From the NCBI GenBank assembly GCA_951406725.2, contig OX597842.1:248001-312000 (forward strand): 64,000 nucleotides of DNA, written 5' to 3'. This stretch comes from Octopus vulgaris. Taxonomy: Eukaryota. The notes under the pieces were generated by a model. The model had not been told where the DNA came from. It did no database searches and was given only the letters and a program-made list of their open reading frames with translations. Position numbers and translations under genes: made by a program. Shown in pieces: positions 4,165 through 64,000 of the stretch. Within the stretch, counting starts at the first letter, position 1. Every line of letters begins with the position of its first letter.

Positions 4165-4195
<31 letters not shown>

Positions 4196-30589: not shown

Positions 30590-30805
30590 GGGTGAGCTGG
30601 CAGAAACATTAGCACGCTGGGCGAAATGCATAGCCGTATTTCGTCTGCTGCTACGTTCTGAGTTCAAATTCCGCTGAGGTCGACTTTGCCTTTCATCCTT
30701 TAAAGGTCGATAAATTAAGTGCCAGTTACGCACTGGGGTCGATGTTATCAACTTAATCCGTTTGTCCCCTCTGTGTTTAGCCCCTTGTGGGCAATAAAGA
30801 AATAT
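30590..30805 (+). mobile_element. Full SINE family 2 copy ending about 175 bp upstream of the signal-peptide ATG
   Basis: GGTGAGCTGGCAGAAAC (A box-like)...GAGTTCAAATTCC (B box-like)...GGGCAATAAAGAAAT. Confidence 0.85.
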
Positions 30806-30979
30806 ATAGTATTTGAAATAGTTAAGAATAAGATCTCCACTGCCAGAGTCTCGACCATAAATCTATTAAAGAGTGACTGATGATATTGTGACTGTTTGTT
30901 TTTCTCAGCCTGACCAGCAGCGGACCCTGGGTTATAAGCTTTGTTATTTTGCAGCTTTTGAAACTTATTTTTTCAGATC

Positions 30980-31034
30980 ATGGGTATTTCGAACTTATTA
31001 AAGGTGCTCCTCCTTTTCTCTATAACATATTTCC
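30980..31034 (+). CDS. First coding exon: N-terminal signal peptide MGISNLLKVLLLFSITYF (+1 nt)
   Basis: tttttcag-ATC-ATG GGT ATT TCG AAC TTA TTA AAG GTG CTC CTC CTT TTC TCT ATA ACA TAT TTC C|gtaagt; Lys followed by a hydrophobic core; phase-1 donor matches the micro-exons. Confidence 0.8.
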
Positions 31035-34000
31035 GTAAGTTTTATTTTTTATTTTATTTCATTTTTTCCATAACTTATTTTTGTTAAGGCAAACTTACTC
31101 AAGTGCACAGAGGTCTGGAATTGGTCTCTCACATAAGGAGGATTTTCTTTGTTTGGACAGGGATTTTTCCAATTTTGTTTTTAGCAGAGCTTTAGAAATG
31201 ATGCATTTTATGGAAGAAAATTTTGGAACATTTTTGATTTTCCACCACAATCCAACTTATAAATTATCTACCTCATTAACAAATTATATACAGAACCTCA
31301 GGTCCCGAAACATTCCCTATATTCTACCCTGGTTAATTAACAGTGAGCTCTCACACCCACCCACCCCATACAACACTAATCTTGGCACTGTGTATGAGAA
31401 TCATCCACTATCTTTCAAAACCACAACTCCTATTTATTTAATAAATTTTCAGATGTAATCCTCTCATGTAAACACAGAACCTATTCCTTGTTTGCCTATT
31501 ATGTTAAATCTATGTAATCTATTTACTCATACATGTCTACATACCTCGGTACTTTGATGTGCAACTGACCCATCTTCATTTTTAAGATTTCCCCTTTGCT
31601 ACACAACTAGCATCTGTAACTGGACCTTTTCTCTCCTTTTAATACTCGCCTCTCCCATCTTCCACCTTTCCAATATCCCTTAGTTCTATAGTGCCACCAT
31701 CCCTAACTATTAACATCTATTGTCATACCCAACAATGACTACCCTTGAAAATACTTTTCCTCTCACACCTCCCACTCATCTCCCAATTTTCCACTTCCAC
31801 TTCTTTCAATACCCTGATCACCCCACCTCCATCTTCCTAATCTGGCTATCTCTTCTTACCCCCTCCTTGTGTCAACATACCCACATTGAGCTACTTACTT
31901 CCTCCCTCCTGGTTTTTGAATTAATCATTCATTATCTTGTAGTTTTGACATTTTGATGATGTGATTGTTTATTTTTAGACTGACATTGAAGGGTAGGTGT
32001 GAGAGGGTGGATGTGGCTAGTTCAAACATAAAACAGATATGGCTGTATTAATCCTTCAGCAATCAGGTTACTGTGAAATATAATGTTCTTTTATTCATAT
32101 TATTTTGAATTATATCATCTTAAAATCAAAAATTTTTGTTTCCATTTTTTACAGAATCGACAAATACAAATGATGATAATATCACCCAAAGTGGTAAGTG
32201 GATTAACAAACCTTTTCTCTCTTTTTAAACTAGACATTACCTTTTTATTTCTGTCTTCTATTTCTTTCTCTTAACTCATAACTTTTATCCAATCTTTTGA
32301 TTTTTGATTTCTTTTAATTTTTAATTTAAACTTTGAGAAAGGCTAAAGAGCCAAAAATGCACATCAGGGAATACATGGCAAACAGTGGTTTTCCACCAGG
32401 GTCATGATGGTTTGTGGGGGTCCATATAGGACTGACACCTTCAATTTTGCTATGGATCCAACAAGCCACAGCATTGTGGTGAACTGCATTCCATGCATTG
32501 GCAAGCTTCTATTGTTTCATGGCCTTCCTAACACCCAACACTTTACCTCATGCAGCGGCTGCTTTTCTTCATTGCACCACCACTCATTTGGTTACCATGT
32601 AGCTGCTATCATGACAGTCATTCTGAATAGGATTGTAGTTATGATGTTTATCATCATCAGTTGTGGCACCTGTGCCAGTGGCACGTAAGAAGCACCATCT
32701 GTACGTTGCCGATGACAGCATCGCCTTGACTGGCTTCCATGTCGGTGGCATGAACAAACCACCAACCGATCATGGCCGTTGCCAGCTTCCCCTGGCACAT
32801 AAAAAGTACCCACTACAGTCACGTGTGTTTCGCGTTCAGGAAAGGCATCCAGCTGTAGAAACACTGCCAGATCAGACTGGAGCCTGGTGCAGCCTCCTGG
32901 CTTCCCAGATCCCGGTCGATCCGTCCAACCAATGCAAGAATGGAAAATGGATGTTAAACGATGATGATGATGTTTCATGCAGAATTCATTCCTCCTTTTT
33001 AATGCCAACCATTTTACAGAGTACTTGGAGGCTTTTTTACATGGCACCAATACTAGGAGGTCGCCAATAACTATAAAGACAAAGGAAGTGGAAGGAAAAA
33101 GTCCCGACCAAAGAGCATAGCAGTGAGGTTGGTGGCTTTATACTAGGTGCTGAGAGGTTAAAATAAGTGGGGTGGGTGTAAGTGGAAAGTGACATGGTTT
33201 AATCAGGCGTACACCCATGTCAGCTGAAATCATGTCCCAATAAACATAAATCTCATTAAATTAAAACTCGTTAGTCTAAGTGTAATAAGATGTCTAATTC
33301 CTTTTGATGGTCTCTATTGCACATTTTCCCTTTTAATTTCCAAGGGCAAAAATATTGACCCTTTAGCATTCAGATTATTCAGTGAAATTTAATCCTTATT
33401 TATTCACATTGGTTTGAATTAATCATGGATTATCTCGTAGCTTTGAAATTTCATTGATGTGATGATGAATTTTTGGAATAACATTGTAGGGTAGGTGTGA
33501 GAGGGTGGATGTGGCTAGTTCAAACATAAAACAGATATGGCTGGATTAATCCTTTAGCAATCAGATTACTGTGAAATATAATGTTCTTTTATTCCAATTA
33601 TTTTGAATCATATCATCTTAAAATCAAAAATTTTTGTTTCCATTTTTTACAGATTTGATAAATATAAATGATGATAATATCACCCAAAGTGGTAAGTGGA
33701 TTAACAAACCATTTCTCTCCTAGACATTACCTTTTCAGTTCTGTCTTCTATTTCCTTCCCATAACTCATAAGTTTTAGCCAATCTTTTGATTTTTGATTT
33801 CTTTAAATTTTTAATTTAACCTTTGAGAAAGGCTAAAGAGCCAAAAATGCACATCAGGGAATGTACTGCAGCAGTGGTTTTCGACCGGGGTCATGATGGT
33901 TTGTGGAGGTCCATATAGGACTGACACCTTCAATTTTGCTATGGATCCAACACACCAGAGCATTGTGGTGAACTCCATTCCATGCATTGGCAAGGCTTCT

Positions 34001-37000
34001 ATTGCTTCATGGCTTTCCTAACACTCACCACTTTAGCACATGTAGTGGCTGCTTTTCTTCATTGCACCACCACTCATTTGGTTACCATGTAGCTGCTATT
34101 ATGACAGTCGTTCTGAATAGGATTGTGGTTATGATGTTTATCATCATCAGTTATGGCACCTGTGCCGGTTGCACGTAAAAAGCACCATCCGTACGTTGCT
34201 GATGCCAGCGCCGCCTTGACTGGCTTCCATGTCGGTGGCATGAAAAACCACCAACCGATCGTGGCCGTTGCCAGCCTCCCCTGGCACATAAAAAGTACCC
34301 ACTACAGTCACGTGTGTTTCACGTTTAGGGAAGGCATCCAGCTGTAGAAACACTGCCAGATCAGACTGGAGCCTGGTGCAGCCTCCTGGCTTCCCAGATC
34401 CCGGTCGATCCGTCCAACCAATGCAAGCATAGAAAACGGATGTTAAACGATGATGATGATGTTTCATGCAGAATTCATTCCTCCTTTTTAATGCCAACCA
34501 TTTTACAGAGTACTTGGAGGCTTTTTACATGGCACCAATACTAGGAGGTCGCCAATAACTATAAAGACAAAGGAAGCGGAAGGAAAAAGTCCCGACCGAA
34601 GAGCATAGCAGTGAGTGTGGTGGCTTTATACCAGGTGCTGAGAGGTTAAAATAAGTGGGGTGGGTGTAAGTGGAAAGTGACATGATTTAATCAGGCGTAC
34701 ACCCATGTCAGCTGAAATCATGTCCCAATAAACATAAATCTCATTAAATTAAAACTCGTTAGTCTAAGTGTGATAGGATGTCTAATTTCTTTTGATGGTC
34801 TCTATTGCACATTTTCCCTTTTAATTCCAACGGCAAAAATATTAACCCTTTAGCATTCAGATTATTCAGTGAAATTTAATCCTTATTTATTCACATTGGT
34901 TTGAATTAATCATGGATTATTTCGTAGCTTTGAGATTTCATTGATGTGATGATGAATTTTTGGAATAACATTGTAGGGTAGGTGTGGGAGGTTGGATGTG
35001 GCTAGTTCAAACATAAACAGATATGGCTGGTTTAATCCTTTAGCAATCAGATTACTGTGAAATATAATGTTCTTTTATTCACGTTTTTTTGAATAATATC
35101 ATCTTAAAATCAAAAATATTTGTTTCTATTTTTACAGATTTGGAAGATGAAAATGATGAAAATATCAGCGATAGTGGTAAGTGGATTAACAAACCGTTTC
35201 TCTCCTAGACATTACCTTTTCAGTTCTGTCTTCTATTTCTTTCCCTTAACTCATAAGTTTTAGCCAATCTTTTGATTTTCGATCTCTTTAAATTTTTAAT
35301 TTAATCTTTGAGAAAGGCTAAAGAGCCAAAAATGCACATCAGGGAATGTACTGCAGCAGTGGTTTTCGACCAGGGTCATGATGGTTTTTGGGGGTCCATA
35401 TAGGACTGACACCTTCAAGTTTGCTATGGATCCAACAAGCCACAGCATTGTGGTGAACTGCATTCCATGCATTGGCAAGGCTTCTATTGTTTCATGGCCT
35501 TCCTAACACCCAACACTTTACCTCATGCAGCGGCTGCTTTTCTTCATTGCACCATCACTTATTTGGTTACCATGTAGCTGCGATTATGACAGTCTTTCTG
35601 AATAGGATTGTTGTTATGATGTTTATCATCATCAGTAATGGCACCCAGTGCCGGTGGCACGTAAAAAGAACCATCCATACGTTGCCGATGACAGCATCGC
35701 CTTGACTGGCTTCCATGTCGGTGGCATGAACAAACCACCAACCGATCGTGGCCGTTGCCAGCTTCCCTGGCACATAAAAAGTACCCACTATAGTCACGTG
35801 TGTTTCGCGTTTAGGAAAGGCATCCAGCTGTAGAAACACAGCCAGATCAGACTGGAGCCTGGTGCAGCCTCCTGGCTTCCCAGATCCCGGTCGATCCGTC
35901 CAACCAATGCAAGCATGGAAAACGGATGTTAAACGATGATGATGATGTTTCATGCAGAATTCATTCCTCCGTTTTAATGCCAACCATTTTACAGATTACT
36001 TGGAGGCTTTTTTACATGGCACCAACACTAGTAGGTCGCCAATAACTATAAAGACAAAGGAAGAGGAAGGAAAAAGCCCCAACCGAAGAGCATAGCAGTG
36101 AGTGTGGTGGCTTTATACCAGGTGCTGAGAGGTTAAAATAAGTGGGGTGTTTGTAAGTGGAAAGTGACATGGTTTAATCAGGCGTACACCCATGTCTGAT
36201 GAAATCATGTCCCAATAAACATAAATCTCATTAAATTAAAACTTGTTAGTCTAAGCGTAATAAGATGTCTAATTTCTTTTGATGGTCTCTATTGCACATT
36301 TTCCCTTTTAATTTCCAAGAGCAAAAATATTAACCTTTAGCAATCAGATTATTCAGTGAAATGTAATCCTTATTTATTCACATTGGTTTGAATTAATCAT
36401 GGATTATTTCGTAGCTTTGAGATTTCATTGATGTGATGATGAATTTTTGGAATAACATTGTAGGGTAGGTGTGGGAGGTTGGATGTGGCTAGTTCAAACA
36501 TAAACAGATATGGCTGGTTTAATCCTTTAGCAATCAGATTACTATGAAATATAATGTTCTTTTATTCACGTTTTTTTGAATAATATCATCTTAAAATCAA
36601 AAATATTTGTTTCTATTTTTACAGATTTGGAAGATGAAAATGATGAAAGTATCACCGATAGTGGTAAGTGGATTAACAAACCGTTTCTCTCCTAGACATT
36701 ACCTTTTCAGTTCTGTCTTCTATTTCTTTCCTTAACTCATAAGTTTTAGCCAATCTTTTGATTTTCGATCTCTTTAAATTTTTAATTTAATCTTTGAGAA
36801 AGGCTAAAGAGCCAAAAATGCACATCAGGGAATGTACTGCAGCAGTGGTTTTCGACCGGGGTCATGATGGTTTTTGGGGTCCATATAGGACTGACACCTT
36901 CAAGTTTGCTATGGATCCAACAAGCCACAGCATTGTGGTGAACTGCATTCCATGCATTGGCAAGGCTTCTATTGTTTCATGGCCTTCCTAACACCCAACA

Positions 37001-40000
37001 CTTTACCACATGTCGTGGCTGCTTTTCTTCATTGCACCATCACTTATTTGGTTACCATGTAGCTGCGATTATGACAGTCTTTCTGAATAGGATTGTTGTT
37101 ATGATGTTTATCATCATCAGTAATGGCACCTGTGCCGGTGGCACGTAAAAAGAACCATCCGTACGTTGCCGATGACAGCATCGCCTTGACTGGCTTCCAT
37201 GTCGGTGGCATGAACAAACCACCAACCGATCGTGGCCGTTGCCAGCTTCCCCTGGCACATAAAAAGTACCCACTATAGTCACGTGTGTTTCGCGTTTAGG
37301 AAAGGCATCCAGCTGTAGAAACACTGCCAGATCAGACTGGAGCCTGGTGCAGCCTCCTGGCTTCCCAGATCCCGGTCGATCCGTCCAACCAATGCAAGCA
37401 TGGAAAACGGATGTTAAACGATGATGATGATGTTTCATGCAGAATTCATTCCTCCGTTTTAATGCCAACCATTTTACAGATTACTTGGAGGCTTTTTTAC
37501 ATGGCACCAACACTAGTAGGTCGCCAATAACTATAAAGACAAAGGAAGAGGAAGGAAAAAGCCCCAACCGAAGAGCATAGCAGTGAGTGTGGTGGCTTTA
37601 TACCAGGTGCTGAGAGGTTAAAATAAGTGGGGTGTTTGTAAGTGGAAAGTGACATGGTTTAATCAGGCGTACACCCATGTCTGATGAAATCATGTCCCAA
37701 TAAACATAAATCTCATTAAATTAAAACTCGTTAGTCTAAGTGTAATAAGATGTCTAATTTCTTTTGATGGTCTCTATTGCACATTTTCCCTTTTAATTTC
37801 CAAGAGCAAAAATATTAACCCTTTAGCAATCAGATTATTCAGTGAAATTTAATCCTTATTTATTCACATTGGTTTGAATTAATCATGGATTATTTCGTAG
37901 CTTTGAGATTTCATTGATGTGATGATGAATTTTTGGAATAACATTGTAGGGTAGGTGTGGGAGGTTGGATGTGGCTAGTTCAAACATAAACAGATATGGC
38001 TGGTTTAATCCTTTAGCAATCAGATTACTGTGAAATATAATGTTCTTTTATTCACGTTTTTTGAATAATATCATCTTAAAATCAAAAATATTTGTTTCTA
38101 TTTTTACAGATTTGGAAGATGAAAATGATGAAAGTATCACCGATAGTGGTAAGTGGATTAACAAACCGTTTCTCTCCTAGACATTACCTTTTCAGTTCTG
38201 TCTTCTATTTCTTTCCCTTAACTCATAAGTTTTAGCCAATCTTTTGATTTTCGATCTCTTTAAATTTTTAATTTAATCTTTGAGAAAGGCTAAAGAGCCA
38301 AAAATGCACATCAGGGAATGTACTGCAGCAGTGGTTTTCGACCGGGGTCATGATGGTTTTTGGGGGTCCATATAGGACTGACACCTTCAAGTTTGCTATG
38401 GATCCAACAAGCCACAGCATTGTGGTGAACTGCATTCCATGCATTGGCAAGGCTTCTATTGTTTCATGGCCTTCCTAACACCCAACACTTTACCTCATGC
38501 AGCGGCTGCTTTTCTTCATTGCACCATCACTTATTTGGTTACAATGTAGCTGCGATTATGACAGTCTTTCTGAATAGGATTGTTGTTATGATGTTTATCA
38601 TCATCAGTAATGGCACCTGTGCCGGTGGCACGTAAAAAGAACCATCCGTACGTTGCCGATGACAGCATCGCCTTGACTGGCTTCCATGTCGGTGGCATGA
38701 ACAAACCACCAACCGATCGTGGCCGTTGCCAGCTTCCCCTGGAACATAAAAAGTACCCACTATAGTCACGTGTGTTTCGCGTTTAGGAAAGGCATCCAGC
38801 TGTAGAAACACTGCCAGATCAGACTGGAGCCTGGTGCAGCCTCCTGGCTTCCCAGATCCCGGTCGATCCGTCCAACCAATGCAAGCATGGAAAACGGATG
38901 TTAAACGATGATGATGATGTTTCATGCAGAATTCATTCCTCCGTTTTAATGCCAACCATTTTACAGATTACTTGGAGGCTTTTTTACATGGCACCAACAC
39001 TAGTAGGTCGCCAATAACTATAAAGACAAAGGAAGAGGAAGGAAAAAGCCCCAACCGAAGAGCATAGCAGTGAGTGTGGTGGCTTTATACCAGGTGCTGA
39101 GAGGTTAAAATAAGTGGGGTGTTTGTAAGTGGAAAGTGACATGGTTTAATCAGGCGTACACCCATGTCTGATGAAATCATGTCCCAATAAACATAAATCT
39201 CATTAAATTAAAACTCGTTAGTCTAAGTGTAATAAGATGTCTAATTCCTTTTGATGGTCTCTATTGCACATTTTCCCTTTTAATTTCCAAGGGCAAAAAT
39301 ATTGACCCTTTAGCATTCAGATTATTCAGTGAAATTTAATCCTTATTTATTCACATTGGTTTGAATTAATCATGGATTATCTCGTAGCTTTGAAATTTCA
39401 TTGATGTGATGATGAATTTTTGGAATAACATTGTAGGGTAGGTGTGAGAGGGTGGATGTGGCTAGTTCAAACATAAAACAGATATGGCTGGATTAATCCT
39501 TTAGCAATCAGATTACTGTGAAATATAATGTTCTTTTATTCCAATTATTTTGAATCATATCATCTTAAAATCAAAAATTTTTGTTTCCATTTTTTACAGA
39601 TTTGATAAATATAAATGATGATAATATCACCCAAAGTGGTAAGTGGATTAACAAACCATTTCTCTCCTAGACATTACCTTTTCAGTTCTGTCTTCTATTT
39701 CCTTCCCATAACTCATAAGTTTTAGCCAATCTTTTGATTTTTGATTTCTTTAAATTTTTAATTTAACCTTTGAGAAAGGCTAAAGAGCCAAAAATGCACA
39801 TCAGGGAATGTACTGCAGCAGTGGTTTTCGACCGGGGTCATGATGGTTTGTGGAGGTCCATATAGGACTGACACCTTCAATTTTGCTATGGATCCAACAC
39901 ACCAGAGCATTGTGGTGAACTCCATTCCATGCATTGGCAAGGCTTCTATTGCTTCATGGCTTTCCTAACACTCACCACTTTAGCACATGTAGTGGCTGCT

Positions 40001-43000
40001 TTTCTTCATTGCACCACCACTCATTTGGTTACCATGTAGCTGCTATTATGACAGTCGTTCTGAATAGGATTGTGGTTATGATGTTTATCATCATCAGTTA
40101 TGGCACCTGTGCCGGTTGCACGTAAAAAGCACCATCCGTACGTTGCTGATGCCAGCGCCGCCTTGACCGGCTTCCATGTCGGTGGCATGAAAAAACGACC
40201 AACCGATCGTGGCCGTTGCCAGCCTCCCCTGGCACATAAAAAGTACCCACTACAGTCACATGTGTTTCACGTTTAGGAAAGGCATCCAGCTGTAGAAACA
40301 CTGCCAGATCAGACTGGAGCCTGGTGCAGCCTCCTGGCTTCCCAGATCCCGGTCGATCCGTCCAACCAATGCAAGCATAGAAAACGGATGTTAAACGATG
40401 ATGATGATGTTTCATGCAGAATTCATTCCTCCTTTTTAATGCCAACCATTTTACAGAGTACTTGGAGGCTTTTTTACATGGCACCAATACTAGGAGGTCG
40501 CCAATAACTATAAAGACAAAGGAAGCGGAAGGAAAAATCCCGACCGAAGAGCATAGCAGTGAGTGTGGTGGCTTTATACCAGGTGCTGAGAGGTTAAAAT
40601 AAGTGGGGTGGGTGTAAGTGGAAAGTGACATGGTTTAATCAGGCATACACCCATGTCTGATGAAATCATGTCCCAATAAACATAAATCTCATTAAATTAA
40701 AACTCGTTAGTCTAAGTGTAATAAGATGTCTAATTTCTTTTGATGGTCTCTATTACACATTTTCCCTTTTAATTTCCAAGGGCAAAAAAATTAACCCTTT
40801 AGCATTCAGATAATTCAGTGAAATGTAATCCTTATTTATTCAAATTGGTTTGAATTAATGATGGATTATCTCGTAGCTTTGAAATTTCAAAGATGTGATG
40901 ATGAATTTTTGGAATAACATTGTAGGGTAGGTGTGAGAGGGTGGATGTGGCTAGTTCAAACATAAGACAGATATGGCTGGTTTAATCCTTCAGCAATCAG
41001 GTTACTGTGAAATATAATGTTCTTTTCTTCATATTATTTTGAATTATATCATCTTAAAATCAAAAATTTTTGTTTCCATTTTTTACAGAATCGACAATTA
41101 CAAATGATGATAATGTCCACCAAAGTCGTAAGTGGATTAACAAACCTTTTCTCTCTTTTTAAACTAGACATTACCTTTTTATTTCTGTCTTCTATTTCTT
41201 TCCCTTAACTCATAACTTTTATCCAATCTTTTGATTTTTGATTTCTTTAAATTTTTAATTTAACCTTTGAGAAAGGCCAAAGAGCCAAAAATGCACATCA
41301 GGGAATGTACTGCAGCAGTGGTTTTCGACCAGGGTCATGATGGTTTGTGGAGGTCCATATAGGACTGACACCTTCAATTTTGATATGGATCCAACAAGCC
41401 ACAGCATTGTGGTGAACTCCATTCCATGCATTGGCAAGGCTTCTATTGCTTCATGGCCTTCCTAACTCTCACCACTTTAGCACATGTAGTGGCTGCTTTT
41501 CTTCATTGCACCATCACTCATTTGGTTACCATGTAGCTGCTATTATGACAGTCGTTCTGAATAGGATTGTGGTTATGATGTTTGTCATCATCAGTTGTGG
41601 CACCTGTGCAGGTGGCACGTAAAAAGAACCACCCGTACGTTGCCGATGACAGCGCCGCCTTGACTGGCTTCCATGTCGGTGGCATGAAAAAACCACCAAC
41701 CGATCGTGGCCGTTGCCAGCCTCCTCTGGCACAAAAAAAGTACCCACTACAGGCACGTGTGTTTCACGTTTAGGAAAGGCATCCAGCTGTAGAAACACTG
41801 CCAGATCAGACTGGAGCCTGGTGCAGCCTCCTGGCTTCCCAGATCCCGGTCGATCCGTCCAACCAATGCAAGCACAGAAAACGGATGTTAAACGATGATG
41901 ATGATGTTTCATGCAGAATTCATTCCTCCTTTTTAATGCCAACCATTTTACAGAGTACTTGGAGGCTTTTGTACGTGGCACCAATACTAGGAGGTCGCCA
42001 ATAACTATAAAGACAAAGGAAGCGGAAGGAAAAAGTCCCGACCGAAGAGCATAGCAGTGAGGTTGGTGGCTTTATACCAGGTGCTGAGAGGTTAAAATAA
42101 GTGGGGTGGGTGTAAGTGGAAAGTGACATGATTTAATCAGGCGTACACCCATGTCTGATGAAATCATGTCCCAATAAACATAAATCTCATTAAATTAAAA
42201 CTCGTTAGTCTAAGTGTAGTAAGATGTCTAATTTCTTTTGATGGTCTCTATTACACATTTTCACTTTTAATTTCCAAGGGCAAAAATACTGACCCTTTAG
42301 CATTCAGACAATTCAGTGAAATGTAATCCTTATTTATTCACATTCGTTTGAATTAATCATGGATTATCTCGTAGCTTTGAGATTTCAAAGATGTGATGAT
42401 GAATTTTTGGAATAACATTGTAGGGTAGGTGTGAGAGGGTGGATGTGGCTAGTTCAAACATAAAACAGATATGGCTGGTTTAATCCTTTAGCAATCAGAT
42501 TACTGTGAAATATAATGTTCTTTTATTCATATTATTTTGAATCATATCATCTTAAATCAAAAATTTTTGTTTCCATTTTTTACAGATTTGATAAATATAA
42601 ATGATGATAATATCACCCAAAGTGGTAAGTGGATTAACAAACCTTTTCTCTCCTAGACATTACCTTTTCAGTTCTGTCTTCTATTTCCTTCCCATAACTC
42701 ATAAGTTTTAGCCAATCTTTTGATTTTTGATTTCTTTAAATTTTTAATTTAAACTTTGAGAAAGGCTAAAGAGCCAAAAATGCACATCAGGGAATGTACT
42801 GCAGCAGTGGTTTTCGACCAGGGTCATGATGGTTTGTGGAGGTCCATATAGGACTGACACGTTCAATTTTGATATGGATCCAACAAGCCACAGCATTGTG
42901 GTGAACTCCATTCCATGCATTGGCAAGGCTTCTATTGCTTCATGGCCTTCCTAACACTCACCACTTTAGCACATGTAGTGGCTGCTTTTCTTCATTGCAC

Positions 43001-46000
43001 CACCACTCATTTAGTTACCATGTAGCTGCTATTATGACAGTCGTTCTGAATAGGATTGTGGTTATGATGTTTATCATCATCAGTTATGGCACCTGTGCCG
43101 GTTGCATGTAAAAAGCACCATCCATACGTTGCTGATGCAAGCGTCGCCTTGACTGGCTTCCATGTCGGTGGCATGAAAAAACCACCAACCGATCGTGGCC
43201 GTTGCCAGCCTCCTCTGGCACATAAAAAGTACCCACTACAGGCACGTGTATTTCACGTTTAGGAAAGGCATCCAGCTGTAGAAACACTGCCAGATCAGAC
43301 TGGAGCCTGGTGCAGCCTCCTGGCTTCCCAGATCCCGGTCGATCCGTCCAACCAATGCAAGCATAGAAAACAGATGTTAAACGATGATGATGATGTTTCA
43401 TGCAGAATTCATTCCTCCTTTTTAATGCCAACCATTTTACAGAGTACTTGGAGGCTTTTTTACATGGCACCAATACTAGGAGGTCGCCAATAACTATAAA
43501 GACAAAGGAAGTGGAAGGAAAAAGTCCCGACCAAAGAGCATAGCAGTGAGGTTGGTGGCTTTATACTAGGTGCTGAGAGGTTAAAATAAGTGGGGTGGGT
43601 GTAAGTGGAAAGTGACATGGTTTAATCAGGCGTACACCCATGTCAGCTGAAATCATGTCCCAATAAACATAAATCTCATTAAATTAAAACTCGTTAGTCT
43701 AAGTGTAATAAGATGTCTAATTCCTTTTGATGGTCTCTATTGCACATTTTCCCTTTTAATTTCCAAGGGCAAAAATATTGACCCTTTAGCATTCAGATTA
43801 TTCAGTGAAATTTAATCCTTATTTATTCACATTGGTTTGAATTAATCATGGATTATCTCGTAGCTTTGAAATTTCATTGATGTGATGATGAATTTTTGGA
43901 ATAACATTGTAGGGTAGGTGTGAGAGGGTGGATGTGGCTAGTTCAAACATAAAACAGATATGGCTGGATTAATCCTTTAGCAATCAGATTACTGTGAAAT
44001 ATAATGTTCTTTTATTCCAATTATTTTGAATCATATCATCTTAAAATCAAAAATTTTTGTTTCCATTTTTTACAGATTTGATAAATATAAATGATGATAA
44101 TATCACCCAAAGTGGTAAGTGGATTAACAAACCATTTCTCTCCTAGACATTACCTTTTCAGTTCTGTCTTCTATTTCCTTCCCATAACTCATAAGTTTTA
44201 GCCAATCTTTTGATTTTTGATTTCTTTAAATTTTTAATTTAACCTTTGAGAAAGGCTAAAGAGCCAAAAATGCACATCAGGGAATGTACTGCAGCAGTGG
44301 TTTTCGACCGGGGTCATGATGGTTTGTGGAGGTCCATATAGGACTGACACCTTCAATTTTGCTATGGATCCAACACACCAGAGCATTGTGGTGAACTCCA
44401 TTCCATGCATTGGCAAGGCTTCTATTGCTTCATGGCTTTCCTAACACTCACCACTTTAGCACATGTAGTGGCTGCTTTTCTTCATTGCACCACCACTCAT
44501 TTGGTTACCATGTAGCTGCTATTATGACAGTCGTTCTGAATAGGATTGTGGTTATGATGTTTATCATCATCAGTTATGGCACCTGTGCCGGTTGCACGTA
44601 AAAAGCACCATCCGTACGTTGCTGATGCCAGCGCCGCCTTGACTGGCTTCCATGTCGGTGGCATGAAAACCACCAACCGATCGTGGCCGTTGCCAGCCTC
44701 CCCTGGCACATAAAAAGTACCCACTACAGTCACGTGTGTTTCACGTTTAGGGAAGGCATCCAGCTGTAGAAACACTGCCAGATCAGACTGGAGCCTGGTG
44801 CAGCCTCCTGGCTTCCCAGATCCCGGTCGATCCGTCCAACCAATGCAAGCATAGAAAACGGATGTTAAACGATGATGATGATGTTTCATGCAGAATTCAT
44901 TCCTCCTTTTTAATGCCAACCATTTTACAGAGTACTTGGAGGCTTTTTTACATGGCACCAATACTAGGAGGTCGCCAATAACTATAAAGACAAAGGAAGC
45001 GGAAGGAAAAAGTCCCGACCGAAGAGCATAGCAGTGAGTGTGGTGGCTTTATACCAGGTGCTGAGAGGTTAAAATAAGTGGGGTGGGTGTAAGTGGAAAG
45101 TGACATGATTTAATCAGGCGTACACCCATGTCAGCTGAAATCATGTCCCAATAAACATAAATCTCATTAAATTAAAACTCGTTAGTCTAAGTGTGATAGG
45201 ATGTCTAATTTCTTTTGATGGTCTCTATTGCACATTTTCCCTTTTAATTCCAACGGCAAAAATATTAACCCTTTAGCATTCAGATTATTCAGTGAAATTT
45301 AATCCTTATTTATTCACATTGGTTTGAATTAATCATGGATTATTTCGTAGCTTTGAGATTTCATTGATGTGATGATGAATTTTTGGAATAACATTGTAGG
45401 GTAGGTGTGGGAGGTTGGATGTGGCTAGTTCAAACATAAACAGATATGGCTGGTTTAATCCTTTAGCAATCAGATTACTGTGAAATATAATGTTCTTTTA
45501 TTCACGTTTTTTTGAATAATATCATCTTAAAATCAAAAATATTTGTTTCTATTTTTACAGATTTGGAAGATGAAAATGATGAAAATATCAGCGATAGTGG
45601 TAAGTGGATTAACAAACCGTTTCTCTCCTAGACATTACCTTTTCAGTTCTGTCTTCTATTTCTTTCCCTTAACTCATAAGTTTTAGCCAATCTTTTGATT
45701 TTCGATCTCTTTAAATTTTTAATTTAATCTTTGAGAAAGGCTAAAGAGCCAAAAATGCACATCAGGGAATGTACTGCAGCAGTGGTTTTCGACCAGGGTC
45801 ATGATGGTTTTTGGGGGTCCATATAGGACTGACACCTTCAAGTTTGCTATGGATCCAACAAGCCACAGCATTGTGGTGAACTGCATTCCATGCATTGGCA
45901 AGGCTTCTATTGTTTCATGGCCTTCCTAACACCCAACACTTTACCTCATGCAGCGGCTGCTTTTCTTCATTGCACCATCACTTATTTGGTTACCATGTAG

Positions 46001-49000
46001 CTGCGATTATGACAGTCTTTCTGAATAGGATTGTTGTTATGATGTTTATCATCATCAGTAATGGCACCTGTGCCGGTGGCACGTAAAAGAACCATCCATA
46101 CGTTGCCGATGACAGCATCGCCTTGACTGGCTTCCATGTCGGTGGCATGAACAAACCACCAACCGATCGTGGCCGTTGCCAGCTTCCCCTGGCACATAAA
46201 AAGTACCCACTATAGTCACGTGTGTTTCGCGTTTAGGAAAGGCATCCAGCTGTAGAAACACAGCCAGATCAGACTGGAGCCTGGTGCAGCCTCCTGGCTT
46301 CCCAGATCCCGGTCGATCCGTCCAACCAATGCAAGCATGGAAAACGGATGTTAAACGATGATGATGATGTTTCATGCAGAATTCATTCCTCCGTTTTAAT
46401 GCCAACCATTTTACAGATTACTTGGAGGCTTTTTTTACATGGCACCAACACTAGTAGGTCGCCAATAACTATAAAGACAAAGGAAGAGGAAGGAAAAAGC
46501 CCCAACCGAAGAGCATAGCAGTGAGTGTGGTGGCTTTATACCAGGTGCTGAGAGGTTAAAATAAGTGGGGTGTTTGTAAGTGGAAAGTGACATGGTTTAA
46601 TCAGGCGTACACCCATGTCTGATGAAATCATGTCCCAATAAACATAAATCTCATTAAATTAAAACTTGTTAGTCTAAGCGTAATAAGATGTCTAATTTCT
46701 TTTGATGGTCTCTATTGCACATTTTCCCTTTTAATTTCCAAGAGCAAAAATATTAACCTTTAGCAATCAGATTATTCAGTGAAATGTAATCCTTATTTAT
46801 TCACATTGGTTTGAATTAATCATGGATTATTTCGTAGCTTTGAGATTTCATTGATGTGATGATGAATTTTTGGAATAACATTGTAGGGTAGGTGTGGGAG
46901 GTTGGATGTGGCTAGTTCAAACATAAACAGATATGGCTGGTTTAATCCTTTAGCAATCAGATTACTATGAAATATAATGTTCTTTTATTCACGTTTTTTT
47001 GAATAATATCATCTTAAAATCAAAAATATTTGTTTCTATTTTTACAGATTTGGAAGATGAAAATGATGAAAGTATCACCGATAGTGGTAAGTGGATTAAC
47101 AAACCGTTTCTCTCCTAGACATTACCTTTTCAGTTCTGTCTTCTATTTCTTTCCCTTAACTCATAAGTTTTAGCCAATCTTTTGATTTTCGATCTCTTTA
47201 AATTTTTAATTTAATCTTTGAGAAAGGCTAAAGAGCCAAAAATGCACATCAGGGAATGTACTGCAGCAGTGGTTTTCGACCGGGGTCATGATGGTTTTTG
47301 GGGGTCCATATAGGACTGACACCTTCAAGTTTGCTATGGATCCAACAAGCCACAGCATTGTGGTGAACTGCATTCCATGCATTGGCAAGGCTTCTATTGT
47401 TTCATGGCCTTCCTAACACCCAACACTTTACCACATGTCGTGGCTGCTTTTCTTCATTGCACCATCACTTATTTGGTTACCATGTAGCTGCGATTATGAC
47501 AGTCTTTCTGAATAGGATTGTTGTTATGATGTTTATCATCATCAGTAATGGCACCTGTGCCGGTGGCACGTAAAAAGAACCATCCGTACGTTGCCGATGA
47601 CAGCATCGCCTTGACTGGCTTCCATGTCGGTGGCATGAACAAACCACCAACCGATCGTGGCCGTTGCCAGCTTCCCCTGGCACATAAAAAGTACCCACTA
47701 TAGTCACGTGTGTTTCGCGTTTAGGAAAGGCATCCAGCTGTAGAAACACTGCCAGATCAGACTGGAGCCTGGTGCAGCCTCCTGGCTTCCCAGATCCCGG
47801 TCGATCCGTCCAACCAATGCAAGCATGGAAAACGGATGTTAAACGATGATGATGATGTTTCATGCAGAATTCATTCCTCCGTTTTAATGCCAACCATTTT
47901 ACAGATTACTTGGAGGCTTTTTTACATGGCACCAACACTAGTAGGTCGCCAATAACTATAAAGACAAAGGAAGAGGAAGGAAAAAGCCCCAACCGAAGAG
48001 CATAGCAGTGAGTGTGGTGGCTTTATACCAGGTGCTGAGAGGTTAAAATAAGTGGGGTGTTTGTAAGTGGAAAGTGACATGGTTTAATCAGGCGTACACC
48101 CATGTCTGATGAAATCATGTCCCAATAAACATAAATCTCATTAAATTAAAACTCGTTAGTCTAAGTGTAATAAGATGTCTAATTTCTTTTGATGGTCTCT
48201 ATTGCACATTTTCCCTTTTAATTTCCAAGAGCAAAAATATTAACCCTTTAGCAATCAGATTATTCAGTGAAATTTAATCCTTATTTATTCACATTGGTTT
48301 GAATTAATCATGGATTATTTCGTAGCTTTGAGATTTCATTGATGTGATGATGAATTTTTGGAATAACATTGTAGGGTAGGTGTGGGAGGTTGGATGTGGC
48401 TAGTTCAAACATAAACAGATATGGCTGGTTTAATCCTTTAGCAATCAGATTACTGTGAAATATAATGTTCTTTTATTCACGTTTTTTTGAATAATATCAT
48501 CTTAAAATCAAAAATATTTGTTTCTATTTTTACAGATTTGGAAGATGAAAATGATGAAAGTATCACCGATAGTGGTAAGTGGATTAACAAACCGTTTCTC
48601 TCCTAGACATTACCTTTTCAGTTCTGTCTTCTATTTCTTTCCCTTAACTCATAAGTTTTAGCCAATCTTTTGATTTTCGATCTCTTTAAATTTTTAATTT
48701 AATCTTTGAGAAAGGCTAAAGAGCCAAAAATGCACATCAGGGAATGTACTGCAGCAGTGGTTTTCAACCGGGGTCATGATGGTTTTTGGGGTCCATATAG
48801 GACTGACACCTTCAAGTTTGCTATGGATCCAACAAGCCACAGCATTGTGGTGAACTGCATTCCATGCATTGGCAAGGCTTCTATTGTTTCATGGCCTTCC
48901 TAACACCCAACACTTTACCACATGTCGTGGCTGCTTTTCTTCATTGCACCATCACTTATTTGGTTACCATGTAGCTGCGATTATGACAGTCTTTCTGAAT

Positions 49001-52000
49001 AGGATTGTTGTTATGATGTTTATCATCATCAGTAATGGCACCTGTGCCGGTGGCACGTAAAAAGAACCATCCGTACGTTGCCGATGACAGCATCGCCTTG
49101 ACTGGCTTCCATGTCGGTGGCATGAACAAACCACCAACCGATCGTGGCCGTTGCCAGCTTCCCCTGGCACATAAAAAGTACCCACTATAGTCACGTGTGT
49201 TTCGCGTTTAGGAAAGGCATCCAGCTGTAGAAACACTGCCAGATCAGACTGGAGCCTGGTGCAGCCTCCTGGCTTCCCAGATCCCGGTCGATCCGTCCAA
49301 CCAATGCAAGCATGGAAAACGGATGTTAAACGATGATGATGATGTTTCATGCAGAATTCATTCCTCCGTTTTAATGCCAACCATTTTACAGATTACTTGG
49401 AGGCTTTTTTACATGGCACCAACACTAGTAGGTCGCCAATAACTATAAAGACAAAGGAAGAGGAAGGAAAAAGCCCCAACCGAAGAGCATAGCAGTGAGT
49501 GTGGTGGCTTTATACCAGGTGCTGAGAGGTTAAAATAAGTGGGGTGTTTGTAAGTGGAAAGTGACATGGTTTAATCAGGCGTACACCCATGTCTGATGAA
49601 ATCATGTCCCAATAAACATAAATCTCATTAAATTAAAACTCGTTAGTCTAAGTGTAATAAGATGTCTAATTTCTTTTGATGGTCTCTATTGCACATTTTC
49701 CCTTTTAATTTCCAAGAGCAAAAATATTAACCCTTTAGCAATCAGATTATTCAGTGAAATTTAATCCTTATTTATTCACATTGGTTTGAATTAATCATGG
49801 ATTATTTCGTAGCTTTGAGATTTCATTGATGTGATGATGAATTTTTGGAATAACATTGTAGGGTAGGTGTGGGAGGTTGGATGTGGCTAGTTCAAACATA
49901 AACAGATATGGCTGGTTTAATCCTTTAGCAATCAGATTACTGTGAAATATAATGTTCTTTTATTCACGTTTTTTTGAATAATATCATCTTAAAATCAAAA
50001 ATATTTGTTTCTATTTTTACAGATTTGGAAGATGAAAATGATGAAAGTATCACCGATAGTGGTAAGTGGATTAACAAACCGTTTCTCTCCTAGACATTAC
50101 CTTTTCAGTTCTGTCTTCTATTTCTTTCCCTTAACTCATAAGTTTTAGCCAATCTTTTGATTTTCGATCTCTTTAAATTTTTAATTTAATCTTTGAGAAA
50201 GGCTAAAGAGCCAAAAATGCACATCAGGGAATGTACTGCAGCAGTGGTTTTCGACCGGGGTCATGATGGTTTTTGGGGGTCCATATAGGACTGACACCTT
50301 CAAGTTTGCTATGGATCCAACAAGCCACAGCATTGTGGTGAACTGCATTCCATGCATTGGCAAGGCTTCTATTGTTTCATGGCCTTCCTAACACCCAACA
50401 CTTTACCTCATGCAGCGGCTGCTTTTCTTCATTGCACCATCACTTATTTGGTTACAATGTAGCTGCGATTATGACAGTCTTTCTGAATAGGATTGTTGTT
50501 ATGATGTTTATCATCATCAGTAATGGCACCTGTGCCGGTGGCACGTAAAAAGAACCATCCGTACGTTGCCGATGACAGCATCGCCTTGACTGGCTTCCAT
50601 GTCGGTGGCATGAACAAACCACCAACCGATCGTGGCCGTTGCCAGCTTCCCCTGGAACATAAAAAGTACCCACTATAGTCACGTGTGTTTCGCGTTTAGG
50701 AAAGGCATCCAGCTGTAGAAACACTGCCAGATCAGACTGGAGCCTGGTGCAGCCTCCTGGCTTCCCAGATCCCGGTCGATCCGTCCAACCAATGCAAGCA
50801 TGGAAAACGGATGTTAAACGATGATGATGATGTTTCATGCAGAATTCATTCCTCCGTTTTAATGCCAACCATTTTACAGATTACTTGGAGGCTTTTTTAC
50901 ATGGCACCAACACTAGTAGGTCGCCAATAACTATAAAGACAAAGGAAGAGGAAGGAAAAAGCCCCAACCGAAGAGCATAGCAGTGAGTGTGGTGGCTTTA
51001 TACCAGGTGCTGAGAGGTTAAAATAAGTGGGGTGTTTGTAAGTGGAAAGTGACATGGTTTAATCAGGCGTACACCCATGTCTGATGAAATCATGTCCCAA
51101 TAAACATAAATCTCATTAAATTAAAACTCGTTAGTCTAAGTGTAATAAGATGTCTAATTCCTTTTGATGGTCTCTATTGCACATTTTCCCTTTTAATTTC
51201 CAAGGGCAAAAATATTGACCCTTTAGCATTCAGATTATTCAGTGAAATTTAATCCTTATTTATTCACATTGGTTTGAATTAATCATGGATTATCTCGTAG
51301 CTTTGAAATTTCATTGATGTGATGATGAATTTTTGGAATAACATTGTAGGGTAGGTGTGAGAGGGTGGATGTGGCTAGTTCAAACATAAAACAGATATGG
51401 CTGGATTAATCCTTTAGCAATCAGATTACTGTGAAATATAATGTTCTTTTATTCCAATTATTTTGAATCATATCATCTTAAAATCAAAAATTTTTGTTTC
51501 CATTTTTTACAGATTTGATAAATATAAATGATGATAATATCACCCAAAGTGGTAAGTGGATTAACAAACCATTTCTCTCCTAGACATTACCTTTTCAGTT
51601 CTGTCTTCTATTTCCTTCCCATAACTCATAAGTTTTAGCCAATCTTTTGATTTTTGATTTCTTTAAATTTTTAATTTAACCTTTGAGAAAGGCTAAAGAG
51701 CCAAAAATGCACATCAGGGAATGTACTGCAGCAGTGGTTTTCGACCGGGGTCATGATGGTTTGTGGAGGTCCATATAGGACTGACACCTTCAATTTTGCT
51801 ATGGATCCAACACACCAGAGCATTGTGGTGAACTCCATTCCATGCATTGGCAAGGCTTCTATTGCTTCATGGCTTTCCTAACACTCACCACTTTAGCACA
51901 TGTAGTGGCTGCTTTTCTTCATTGCACCACCACTCATTTGGTTACCATGTAGCTGCTATTATGACAGTCGTTCTGAATAGGATTGTGGTTATGATGTTTA

Positions 52001-55000
52001 TCATCATCAGTTATGGCACCTGTGCCGGTTGCACGTAAAAAGCACCATCCGTACGTTGCTGATGCCAGCGCCGCCTTGACCGGCTTCCATGTCGGTGGCA
52101 TGAAAACGACCAACCGATCGTGGCCGTTGCCAGCCTCCCCTGGCACATAAAAAGTACCCACTACAGTCACATGTGTTTCACGTTTAGGAAAGGCATCCAG
52201 CTGTAGAAACACTGCCAGATCAGACTGGAGCCTGGTGCAGCCTCCTGGCTTCCCAGATCCCGGTCGATCCGTCCAACCAATGCAAGCATAGAAAACGGAT
52301 GTTAAACGATGATGATGATGTTTCATGCAGAATTCATTCCTCCTTTTTAATGCCAACCATTTTACAGAGTACTTGGAGGCTTTTTTACATGGCACCAATA
52401 CTAGGAGGTCGCCAATAACTATAAAGACAAAGGAAGCGGAAGGAAAAATCCCGACCGAAGAGCATAGCAGTGAGTGTGGTGGCTTTATACCAGGTGCTGA
52501 GAGGTTAAAATAAGTGGGGTGGGTGTAAGTGGAAAGTGACATGGTTTAATCAGGCATACACCCATGTCTGATGAAATCATGTCCCAATAAACATAAATCT
52601 CATTAAATTAAAACTCGTTAGTCTAAGTGTAATAAGATGTCTAATTTCTTTTGATGGTCTCTATTACACATTTTCCCTTTTAATTTCCAAGGGCAAAAAA
52701 AATTAACCCTTTAGCATTCAGATAATTCAGTGAAATGTAATCCTTATTTATTCAAATTGGTTTGAATTAATGATGGATTATCTCGTAGCTTTGAAATTTC
52801 AAAGATGTGATGATGAATTTTTGGAATAACATTGTAGGGTAGGTGTGAGAGGGTGGATGTGGCTAGTTCAAACATAAGACAGATATGGCTGGTTTAATCC
52901 TTCAGCAATCAGGTTACTGTGAAATATAATGTTCTTTTCTTCATATTATTTTGAATTATATCATCTTAAAATCAAAAATTTTTGTTTCCATTTTTTACAG
53001 AATCGACAATTACAAATGATGATAATGTCCACCAAAGTCGTAAGTGGATTAACAAACCTTTTCTCTCTTTTTAAACTAGACATTACCTTTTTATTTCTGT
53101 CTTCTATTTCTTTCCCTTAACTCATAACTTTTATCCAATCTTTTGATTTTTGATTTCTTTAAATTTTTAATTTAACCTTTGAGAAAGGCCAAAGAGCCAA
53201 AAATGCACATCAGGGAATGTACTGCAGCAGTGGTTTTCGACCAGGGTCATGATGGTTTGTGGAGGTCCATATAGGACTGACACCTTCAATTTTGATATGG
53301 ATCCAACAAGCCACAGCATTGTGGTGAACTCCATTCCATGCATTGGCAAGGCTTCTATTGCTTCATGGCCTTCCTAACTCTCACCACTTTAGCACATGTA
53401 GTGGCTGCTTTTCTTCATTGCACCATCACTCATTTGGTTACCATGTAGCTGCTATTATGACAGTCGTTCTGAATAGGATTGTGGTTATGATGTTTGTCAT
53501 CATCAGTTGTGGCACCTGTGCAGGTGGCACGTAAAAAGAACCACCCGTACGTTGCCGATGACAGCGCCGCCTTGACTGGCTTCCATGTCGGTGGCATGAA
53601 AAAACCACCAACCGATCGTGGCCGTTGCCAGCCTCCTCTGGCACAAAAAAAGTACCCACTACAGGCACGTGTGTTTCACGTTTAGGAAAGGCATCCAGCT
53701 GTAGAAACACTGCCAGATCAGACTGGAGCCTGGTGCAGCCTCCTGGCTTCCCAGATCCCGGTCGATCCGTCCAACCAATGCAAGCACAGAAAACGGATGT
53801 TAAACGATGATGATGATGTTTCATGCAGAATTCATTCCTCCTTTTTAATGCCAACCATTTTACAGAGTACTTGGAGGCTTTTGTACGTGGCACCAATACT
53901 AGGAGGTCGCCAATAACTATAAAGACAAAGGAAGCGGAAGGAAAAAGTCCCGACCGAAGAGCATAGCAGTGAGGTTGGTGGCTTTATACCAGGTGCTGAG
54001 AGGTTAAAATAAGTGGGGTGGGTGTAAGTGGAAAGTGACATGATTTAATCAGGCGTACACCCATGTCTGATGAAATCATGTCCCAATAAACATAAATCTC
54101 ATTAAATTAAAACCTCGTTAGTCTAAGTGTAGTAAGATGTCTAATTTCTTTTGATGGTCTCTATTACACATTTTCACTTTTAATTTCCAAGGGCAAAAAT
54201 ACTGACCCTTTAGCATTCAGACAATTCAGTGAAATGTAATCCTTATTTATTCACATTCGTTTGAATTAATCATGGATTATCTCGTAGCTTTGAGATTTCA
54301 AAGATGTGATGATGAATTTTGGAATAACATTGTAGGGTAGGTGTGAGAGGGTGGATGTGGCTAGTTCAAACATAAAACAGATATGGCTGGTTTAATCCTT
54401 TAGCAATCAGATTACTGTGAAATATAATGTTCTTTTATTCATATTATTTTGAATCATATCATCTTAAATCAAAAATTTTTGTTTCCATTTTTTACAGATT
54501 TGATAAATATAAATGATGATAATATCACCCAAAGTGGTAAGTGGATTAACAAACCTTTTCTCTCCTAGACATTACCTTTTCAGTTCTGTCTTCTATTTCC
54601 TTCCCATAACTCATAAGTTTTAGCCAATCTTTTGATTTTTGATTTCTTTAAATTTTTAATTTAAACTTTGAGAAAGGCTAAAGAGCCAAAAATGCACATC
54701 AGGGAATGTACTGCAGCAGTGGTTTTCGACCAGGGTCATGATGGTTTGTGGAGGTCCATATAGGACTGACACGTTCAATTTTGATATGGATCCAACAAGC
54801 CACAGCATTGTGGTGAACTCCATTCCATGCATTGGCAAGGCTTCTATTGCTTCATGGCCTTCCTAACACTCACCACTTTAGCACATGTAGTGGCTGCTTT
54901 TCTTCATTGCACCACCACTCATTTAGTTACCATGTAGCTGCTATTATGACAGTCGTTCTGAATAGGATTGTGGTTATGATGTTTATCATCATCAGTTATG

Positions 55001-63463: not shown

Positions 63464-64000
63464 GTAAGTGGATTAACAAACCTTTTCTCTCTTTTTAAAC
63501 TAGACATTACCTTTTTATTTCTGTCTTCTATTTCTTTCCCTTAACTCATAACTTTTATCCAATCTTTTGATTTTTGATTTCTTTAAATTTTTAATTTAAC
63601 CTTTGAGAAAGGCCAAAGAGCCAAAAATGCACATCAGGGAATGTACTGCAGCAGTGGTTTTCGACCAGGGTCATGATGGTTTGTGGAGGTCCATATAGGA
63701 CTGACACCTTCAATTTTGATATGGATCCAACAAGCCACAGCATTGTGGTGAACTCCATTCCATGCATTGGCAAGGCTTCTATTGCTTCATGGCCTTCCTA
63801 ACTCTCACCACTTTAGCACATGTAGTGGCTGCTTTTCTTCATTGCACCATCACTCATTTGGTTACCATGTAGCTGCTATTATGACAGTCGTTCTGAATAG
63901 GATTGTGGTTATGATGTTTGTCATCATCAGTTGTGGCACCTGTGCAGGTGGCACGTAAAAAGAACCACCCGTACGTTGCCGATGACAGCGCCGCCTTGAC

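Follow-up and report, generated by a model that had tools for sequence, protein, structure and literature searches.

Coding exons that change quickly amid homogenised introns have been described before, in opsins, spidroins, snake serum proteins and the micro-exon genes (MEGs) of Schistosoma. The primate red and green opsins are described as having an exon divergence above that of their homogenised flanking introns, which is read as selection (PMC3924837), and spidroin genes as being built from repeated exon-intron units with iterated, highly similar introns and higher-order blocks (PMC9779670). The snake small serum protein (SSP) genes are presented as young duplicates with KA/KS above 1 and low intron divergence (PMC6609765). 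The coding regions of the Schistosoma MEGs consist mostly of very small symmetrical exons varied by alternative splicing, with a signal peptide, surface exposure and dN/dS above 1 in some mature regions (PMC4350168). Arthropod Dscam has tandem exon clusters of mutually exclusive use (PMC13428168). Here we analyse a window of 64,000 nucleotides from Octopus vulgaris (assembly GCA_951406725.2, contig OX597842.1, here called C29; C29:248001-312000; positions without prefix are window positions), which contains a large tandem array of 39-nt micro-exons, one per repeat unit, within a gene for a predicted immunoglobulin (Ig)-fold membrane protein. The array micro-exons are coding and, by the tests used, under positive selection.

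The repeat units measure about 1.49 kb (1484-1498 bp), and the last one in the window is cut by the window edge. In each of the 22 window units the 39-nt exon is flanked by TTTTACAG and GTAAGT, the acceptor being a pyrimidine-rich AG. Another six micro-exons lie beyond the window end, up to C29:320399, and bring the array to 28 copies over 41 kb. All copies have the same GTAAGTGGA donor and near-identical acceptors. They are symmetric phase-1 exons, and the 39-nt segments give one open frame only when the exons are joined in series. Neither a stop nor an indel occurs in the 28 exons; since the array copies were located by their donor motif, this absence of stops is meaningful. Five exon types were distinguished among the window copies and eight in the complete array, one type being represented by nine identical copies and another by seven. 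The units fall into near-identical blocks of seven to eight, three of which are almost identical, and at a shift of 7, 8 or 15 units many of them differ from their counterpart by 0-2 bases. Therefore, the 22 units are not independent samples; the real sample in the window is five exon types, and the independent sample as a whole comprises only five to eight types of 12 codons. Remnants of Ig exons were not found within the array.

An earlier note on this DNA, made from the letters alone, had proposed that the micro-exons diverge faster than their introns and only by amino-acid-changing substitutions. In the 21 full window units, nucleotide diversity (pi) is 0.168 in the exon and 0.036 outside of it, and a sliding window of 39 columns reaches no more than 0.10 at the highest non-exon position. 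The outcome that the note had named as refuting, an exon peak not exceeding that of intronic windows, thus did not occur, and the observation is confirmed. When all 28 copies are considered, at least 27 mutations are needed to explain the 39 exon columns versus 252 for 1180 intron columns (Fisher p=5e-10), and the best intron window holds 18. The hand counts of the note turned out to be exact (9/39 between types B and D, 4/39 between A and B, 2/39 between C and D, 5/39 between A and A′, all nonsynonymous), and its estimate of about 12 differences in the first ~265 intron nucleotides compares well with the 11/264 that we obtained for units 2 and 5. A Fisher test on individual pairs, however, separates exon from intron for B-D (p=1.3e-4) but not for A-B (0.29), C-D (0.050) or A-A′ (0.077). 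Indels are confined to the introns, as had been stated, with 28 distinct gap runs and none in an exon. The restriction to amino-acid changes is true of the five window types, but the six copies beyond the window add one synonymous change, AAT>AAC.

There is no divergence shoulder beside the exon, where the flanks diverge by 0.024-0.053 as compared with 0.044 overall; at linked neutral sites, including the few synonymous ones, divergence is not raised. The elevation upstream of the acceptor, for which a gene-conversion boundary had been considered, is slight (0.053 versus 0.044 at 31-100 nt). Gene conversion or unequal crossing-over among the array introns is real. Four-gamete incompatibility rises from 6% to 23% with distance, introns are mosaic, and units 7 and 25 show 0-1 differences in the distal intron versus 15 in the exon. 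Because of this recombination, the intron baseline may be lowered.

Over the full array, only one of the 27 exon mutations is synonymous, whereas 16-22% would be expected (p 0.01-0.05), and the three codon positions account for 11, 12 and 4 mutations. For the 28 pairs among the eight types, the nonsynonymous divergence (pN) is 0.265, the synonymous divergence (pS) 0.032 and the divergence of the flanking intron 0.054. A GY codon model yielded an omega of 9.8 for the eight types (likelihood-ratio test, p 0.006-0.016); with the five window types alone the estimate was unbounded (p 0.005-0.010). Positive selection on the exon, as surmised in the note, is thus supported, with an omega of about 10. 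Since a shoulder is absent and synonymous sites are not raised, faster amino-acid change fits better than an old protected block. An A-to-G bias by RNA editing was considered as a source of the exon changes and rejected (A/G = 6/27). It is important to note that the acceleration is common to the array and the Ig exons of the subfamily, and is not array-specific. For the non-array micro-exons omega is about 2 (p 0.03-0.04); it reaches 2-3 (p 0.002-0.003) in the six Ig exons that belong to the subfamily of this locus. Ig2 and Ig4 differ at 18 nonsynonymous and no synonymous sites, with flanks differing at 2/262 positions, and Ig1 and Ig3 (C29:330,280 versus 342,638), both of which are open, by seven nonsynonymous and no synonymous changes.

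The gene reads, in order, leader, 28 micro-exons, Ig1, micro-exon, Ig2, (second leader), micro-exon, Ig3, micro-exon, Ig4 and transmembrane exon. If all micro-exons are used, they make up 31 x 39 = 1209 nt of ~2370 coding nt (51%). Contigs from runs X1, X2, X3 and X6, which are only presumed to be RNA, were aligned to window positions 32075-32290. Record 21 of run X3, a 381-nt contig, aligns to the window exon with six differing letters and is unmatched at either end. Its upstream end is the exact end of C29:330280-330528, and its downstream end is the start of the 334064 exon, with two mismatches. As both ends fall on 249-nt exons, this contig represents Ig1-micro-Ig2 spliced at the predicted borders. 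Record 2 of run X1, a contig of 69 nt, matches the first exon of the window at 39/40 letters, while its 27 upstream letters diverge from the intron. Run X6 does not cover the exon and is uninformative either way; contigs aligned to window positions 30170-33410 are dominated by dispersed repeats and gave no useful joint, and a scan of open reading frames in 264 kb around the window (437 frames) provided no clue to the gene among the frames listed. The notion that the 39-mers are translated is upheld by their position in frame between signal-peptide and Ig exons, by homologues in octopus protein models and by the spliced probable-RNA contigs. The second leader exon lies at C29:337,773, between Ig2 and the next micro-exon; the locus therefore resembles two tandem copies that have fused, with a single transmembrane exon and perhaps an additional start. 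Remnants of shortened leaders are present at C29:330,770-330,886 and 343,128-343,244. The transmembrane exon (C29:359,558-359,667) encodes an Arg within the hydrophobic stretch and almost no cytoplasmic tail. An Arg in the membrane helix together with a tiny tail is a feature of adaptor-coupled activating receptors; in most paralogues this Arg is not conserved.

The locus belongs to a family of octopus proteins. Its Ig2 matches eight uncharacterised Octopus proteins with 55-70% identity, and the relatives, all uncharacterised (O. sinensis LOC115225115, LOC115225116 and LOC115225442; O. vulgaris CAI9743493/596/597; O. bimaculoides LOC106867739), start with a signal peptide and continue with one or several domains, a single membrane helix and, usually, a short tail. 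In the DNA stretches examined we found 36 intact domain exons and 41 non-array micro-exons (42 matches, of which C29:16478859, which is without family flanks, was excluded before counting), usually with one micro-exon before each Ig exon. The program used for non-array micro-exons discards stop-containing exons, so the absence of stops is uninformative in that set. The array locus fits this family by its 39-nt phase-1 micro-exons, signal peptide and C-terminal transmembrane exon, and the array flanks align with the flanks of the family micro-exons. The main family clusters lie at C29:18.5-20.5, 22.35 and 27.4 Mb, and a genome search, with 40 of 44 candidates scored, gave at least 41 matches. 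A profile search of proteins returned 41 matches as well; nine of the ten looked up are from octopus, one match to a bacterial repeat protein was taken as a chance match, and no squid or cuttlefish relatives were among the matches examined, which does not imply their absence. A protein search with Ig1 yielded seven candidates, none of them significant. The model CAI9743493.1 matches paralogous exons letter for letter, and in four O. sinensis models two micro-exon peptides stand back to back. Shortened Ig exons occur in three members (C29:16,428,977-16,429,087, near 16,490,500 and near 16,492,500); the first of these has 111 nt, keeps both splice sites, is in frame and is followed by a transmembrane exon.

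The array locus would encode an Ig-fold membrane protein, judging from a predicted model of the paralogue P0031 (mean predicted local distance difference test, pLDDT, 70.7; predicted template-modelling score, pTM, 0.40), on which the fold was modelled in place of the array locus itself. This model has two beta domains, in which the micro-exon corresponds to a low-confidence linker plus, with its last residues, the first strand of an Ig-like domain. Hence the "peptide module" of the earlier note is coding and selected, but it is not free-standing. The best Foldseek matches of the P0031 model are tandem Ig proteins, and its single domains align with antibody V domains over 90-95 residues (root-mean-square deviation 2.6-2.8, Z about 10). 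Pfam I-set matches 13/34 family members (best E 1.4e-5); Pfam gave no match on six single domain exons, and a PDB sequence search with the family profile gave none either. In canonical V- and I-set Ig domains a disulfide joins strands B and F. In the family alignments this bond is absent, with no Cys in strand B and Phe at the strand-F site, and the invariant Cys residues form a C-x3-C pair elsewhere in the domain; we have therefore filed the protein as Ig-fold, not as classical V- or I-set. The strand-C Trp is an invariant column of the family and is kept in Ig2 and Ig4. A paper describing this octopus family was not found in the literature searched, the coverage of which mostly excludes subscription journals.

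Read in series, the array gives 365 residues without a stop, including 116 Asp or Glu, one Lys or Arg and 18 N-x-S/T sequons. Per 12 residues, the array copies have charges from -1 to -6; the micro-exon peptides outside the array are for the most part neutral or basic (-3 to +4). A Tyr at position 7 is kept in 25 of the 28 distinct non-array peptides. In 26/28 array copies this Tyr is lost and Asp or Glu is found instead, and the copy adjoining Ig1 retains it. Judging the direction from outgroup copies, the step from type B to C/D comprises I>E twice, N>D, D>E and Q>D. This largest step leads toward acidic residues and suggests a directional change of the repeat chemistry as much as the diversification that the earlier note had proposed.

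A plausible origin of the array is indicated by its relatives. A paralogue at C29:16.436 Mb with a single micro-exon agrees with the array locus in leader, flanks (94% over 2.8 kb) and downstream intron. Direct repeats of ~119 bp, about 1.5 kb apart, bracket single-copy linker exons, and unequal crossing-over between such repeats would yield the array unit, which makes this repeat the likely seed. In another paralogue (C29:16,523,700-16,529,500), the first Ig exon is preceded by three micro-exons in tandem, made from a 2.2-kb unit with other breakpoints. Since this unit differs from that of 1.49 kb, the expansion happened twice, independently and at the same position. The intron before Ig1 contains an inverted copy of the short interspersed element (SINE)-like repeat of the array introns (C29:323,602-323,926; ~77-83% identity), which might, in theory, base-pair with each of the units so that exons are looped out; the single-exon paralogue has it too.

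Taken together, we favour, with a probability of roughly 0.6, a scenario in which 28 strand-coding exons have been amplified in tandem, are spliced in series and provide the protein with an acidic, N-glycosylated and positively selected tip. Unequal crossing-over would have amplified the first micro-exon, coding for a linker and the predicted first strand of an Ig-like domain, to 28 copies, most of which would be included serially in one mRNA. The resulting N-terminal extension of ~365 residues, acidic and presumably N-glycosylated, would form the membrane-distal end of a four-Ig protein, and only the last copy would complete Ig1. Positive selection would drive the sequence of this extension. 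The introns would stay alike as the copies are young and still recombining, whereas amino-acid changes in the exons would be fixed faster than neutral ones. Serial inclusion is suggested by the alike, strong splice sites, the failure to find an exclusion device, the identical copies and the joins between micro-exons in models of relatives, and also by the fact that the 28 exons are open in series, give an acidic sequence rich in sequons and have lost the Tyr in 26 cases but kept it next to Ig1. From the fold and omega, the protein may act at surfaces between host and microbe or between cells; a polyanionic tip could there mask or adjust the binding of the Ig domains. No evidence points in particular to venom or gamete recognition, both of which had been mentioned in the note.

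Several observations weigh against this scenario. In the short probable-RNA contigs neither array-to-array nor leader-to-array junctions were seen, no splice joint is listed for the 27 upstream letters of X1 record 2, and run X2 contains the first-exon sequence with both introns attached. Protein searches revealed no protein model of the array locus, and the public model CAI9743493.1 of the three-copy paralogue uses the first micro-exon only. In that paralogue all copies are without Tyr, including the one that adjoins the Ig exon; the changes from A to A′ are not acidifying, and Ig1 and Ig3 (C29:330,280; 342,638) have Arg in place of the strand-C Trp. With regard to selection, the test comprises eight types of 12 codons with ~6-9 synonymous sites, and recombination among units can bias tree-based tests of omega upward. 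For the 36 Ig exons as a whole, omega is about 0.9, which is not different from 1 (p 0.11). Moreover, pS in the Ig exons lies above the intron baseline (0.117 versus 0.058; 0.121 versus 0.075 in the 381/630 pairs with alignable flanks), and introns may therefore understate the elapsed time.

Dscam exon clusters encode parts of Ig domains, and one could imagine a similar choice here, by which each mRNA takes one or very few of the 28 micro-exons to complete the signal peptide and supply the first strand of Ig1. Variant N-termini would then serve recognition, and selection would diversify the alternatives. Each copy is indeed a symmetric phase-1 exon for part of an Ig domain, omega lies far above 1, the model of the three-copy paralogue takes one copy, and both expansions in the subfamily (1.49- and 2.2-kb units) lie just before the first Ig exon. 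Yet we consider such a choice improbable, as no means of exclusion was found: the introns, of 1.45 kb, are all GT-AG and frame-neutral. Docking/selector RNA pairing is a Dscam-type feature, but no inverted match >15 nt was found between a unit and the leader intron, and the sole one in the last intron is the SINE-like copy that the single-exon paralogue shares. Furthermore, nine identical copies of one type and seven of another add no diversity, and the relatives' public models contain joins between micro-exons. A Dscam-like or MEG-like splice cassette, in which splicing would draw on 28 positively selected exons for the first strand and tip of the outermost Ig domain, is unlikely.

Relaxed constraint without positive selection would require that the copies have given up their structural role and that conversion and crossing-over have reset the introns, with diverged exons resisting this process, while splicing signals hold the few synonymous sites. 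Recombination is shown by the mosaic introns (units 7 and 25), and the small number of synonymous sites in the array exon, the excess of pS over intron divergence in Ig exons and their joint omega would all agree with it. On the other hand, relaxation cannot lift pN to five times the value of the directly flanking intron, an old protected exon should gather synonymous changes, of which there is 1/27, and it should not end abruptly without a shoulder (0.024-0.053). The 28 copies without indel or stop, and the 18 nonsynonymous changes between Ig2 and Ig4 with flanks hardly altered, likewise make it a doubtful explanation. It is very improbable that the array is mostly silent or in part a product of assembly, that is, an expanded first-intron repeat with skipped exons or over-counted blocks. 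Although three blocks are almost identical and a protein model with array repeats was not found, the eight distinct exon types are all open in the family frame with intact splice sites, the amino-acid bias requires translation, and run X1 holds one array exon without its upstream intron. Over-counting would alter the copy number, but not the result for five to eight types.

Features of the locus are compiled in the table below. Elsewhere in the window, positions 3315-5849 are occupied by a simple repeat of the (ATG)n type, 2.5 kb long and strongly G-skewed, and positions 13063-16170 by 29 tandem copies of a 107-bp unit (96% matches). A 1.09-kb direct duplication (27132-28218 and 28819-29906, 99% identity), each copy of which contains two 169-bp units, precedes the leader exon. 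Long minus-strand frames in introns of the gene (L002:2094-5255 and L004:7266-9350) are probably retroelement insertions.

Table. Features of the micro-exon array and its gene (window positions unless prefixed with C29)
Feature	Position	Strand	Remark
Leader exon	30977..31034	+	ATG at 30980, 18 signal-peptide-like hydrophobic codons + 1 nt (phase 1), GT donor 31035; near-identical leader before the single micro-exon of the paralogue (C29:16.437 Mb)
Tandem array, one micro-exon per unit	31915..64000	+	22 exons in window, 6 more beyond
Dispersed ~119-bp repeat, opens each unit, also closes array	31915..32033	.	47 hits outside array in 904 kb
SINE-like (our label) dispersed repeat, intron of every unit	34154..34461	-	shown for unit 2; unit positions 742-1049
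Micro-exon 1, type A (T1)	32155..32193	+	39-nt exon scan; matched by 69-nt contig of run X1
Micro-exon 2, type B (T2)	33653..33691	+	39-nt exon scan
Micro-exon 3, type C (T3)	35138..35176	+	39-nt exon scan
Micro-exon 4, type D (T4)	36625..36663	+	39-nt exon scan
Micro-exon 5, type D	38110..38148	+	39-nt exon scan
Micro-exon 6, type B	39600..39638	+	39-nt exon scan
Micro-exon 7, type A′ (T5)	41089..41127	+	39-nt exon scan
Micro-exon 8, type B	42586..42624	+	39-nt exon scan
Micro-exon 9, type B	44076..44114	+	39-nt exon scan
Micro-exon 10, type C	45561..45599	+	39-nt exon scan
Micro-exon 11, type D	47048..47086	+	39-nt exon scan
Micro-exon 12, type D	48536..48574	+	39-nt exon scan
Micro-exon 13, type D	50023..50061	+	39-nt exon scan
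Micro-exon 14, type B	51513..51551	+	39-nt exon scan
Micro-exon 15, type A′	53001..53039	+	39-nt exon scan
Micro-exon 16, type B	54498..54536	+	39-nt exon scan
Micro-exon 17, type B	55988..56026	+	39-nt exon scan
Micro-exon 18, type C	57472..57510	+	39-nt exon scan
Micro-exon 19, type D	58958..58996	+	39-nt exon scan
Micro-exon 20, type D	60446..60484	+	39-nt exon scan
Micro-exon 21, type B	61936..61974	+	39-nt exon scan
Micro-exon 22, type A′	63425..63463	+	39-nt exon scan
Four 249-nt Ig exons	C29:330280 (Ig1, to 330528), 334064 (Ig2), 342638 (Ig3), 352629 (Ig4)		
Linker micro-exons between Ig exons	C29:331979, 338934, 344352		
Transmembrane exon	C29:359558-359667		

The analysis ties the strong selection signal to a concrete gene. 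Its family of octopus Ig-fold surface proteins is unstudied and has no fewer than 36 domain exons on this one contig. If serial splicing is true, the array would document the recent and traceable birth of an acidic glycoprotein segment from a piece of a folded domain, with the single-exon sister gene as the "before" state. If, instead, copies are chosen alternatively, the locus would be a candidate diversity generator in cephalopod recognition. As a splice cassette it could let single cells show different N-termini, or tips that vary in length and charge. Such a way of diversifying receptors would have arisen twice in one subfamily, and we did not find it described for cephalopods in the literature searched.

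With the Octopus LOC115225115-like family, to which it belongs, the locus shares the signal peptide, the repeats of a 13-residue micro-exon and an 83-residue Ig-like exon, and the single transmembrane helix; the public models of this family, however, have one micro-exon peptide per domain, two at most, and no acidic run of 28 copies. Vertebrate CEACAM/PSG proteins are encoded by clustered paralogues and combine Ig domains without the canonical disulfide with rapid amino-acid change. Their resemblance to the octopus family is one of design only, and no sequence homology to any solved structure was detected. In Dscam, as in the octopus array, exons that code for a portion of an Ig domain have been duplicated in tandem, but the array has many identical copies, each with a homologous intron of 1.45 kb. 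Spidroin repeats are structural and themselves homogenised, unlike the octopus array exons, and the snake SSPs are whole-gene duplicates, whereas the octopus copies are exons within one gene. The MEGs are matched in exon size and symmetry, but the octopus micro-exons derive from one Ig-domain exon and account for about half of the coding length of a four-Ig membrane protein, and we claim no homology. Both the opsins (PMC3924837) and the octopus array show conversion or recombination among copies together with an exon peak. In the opsins whole genes are copied, and it is a small number of old sites that the peak protects, whereas in the octopus the copies are exons of one gene, with an excess that is almost wholly nonsynonymous and without a shoulder.

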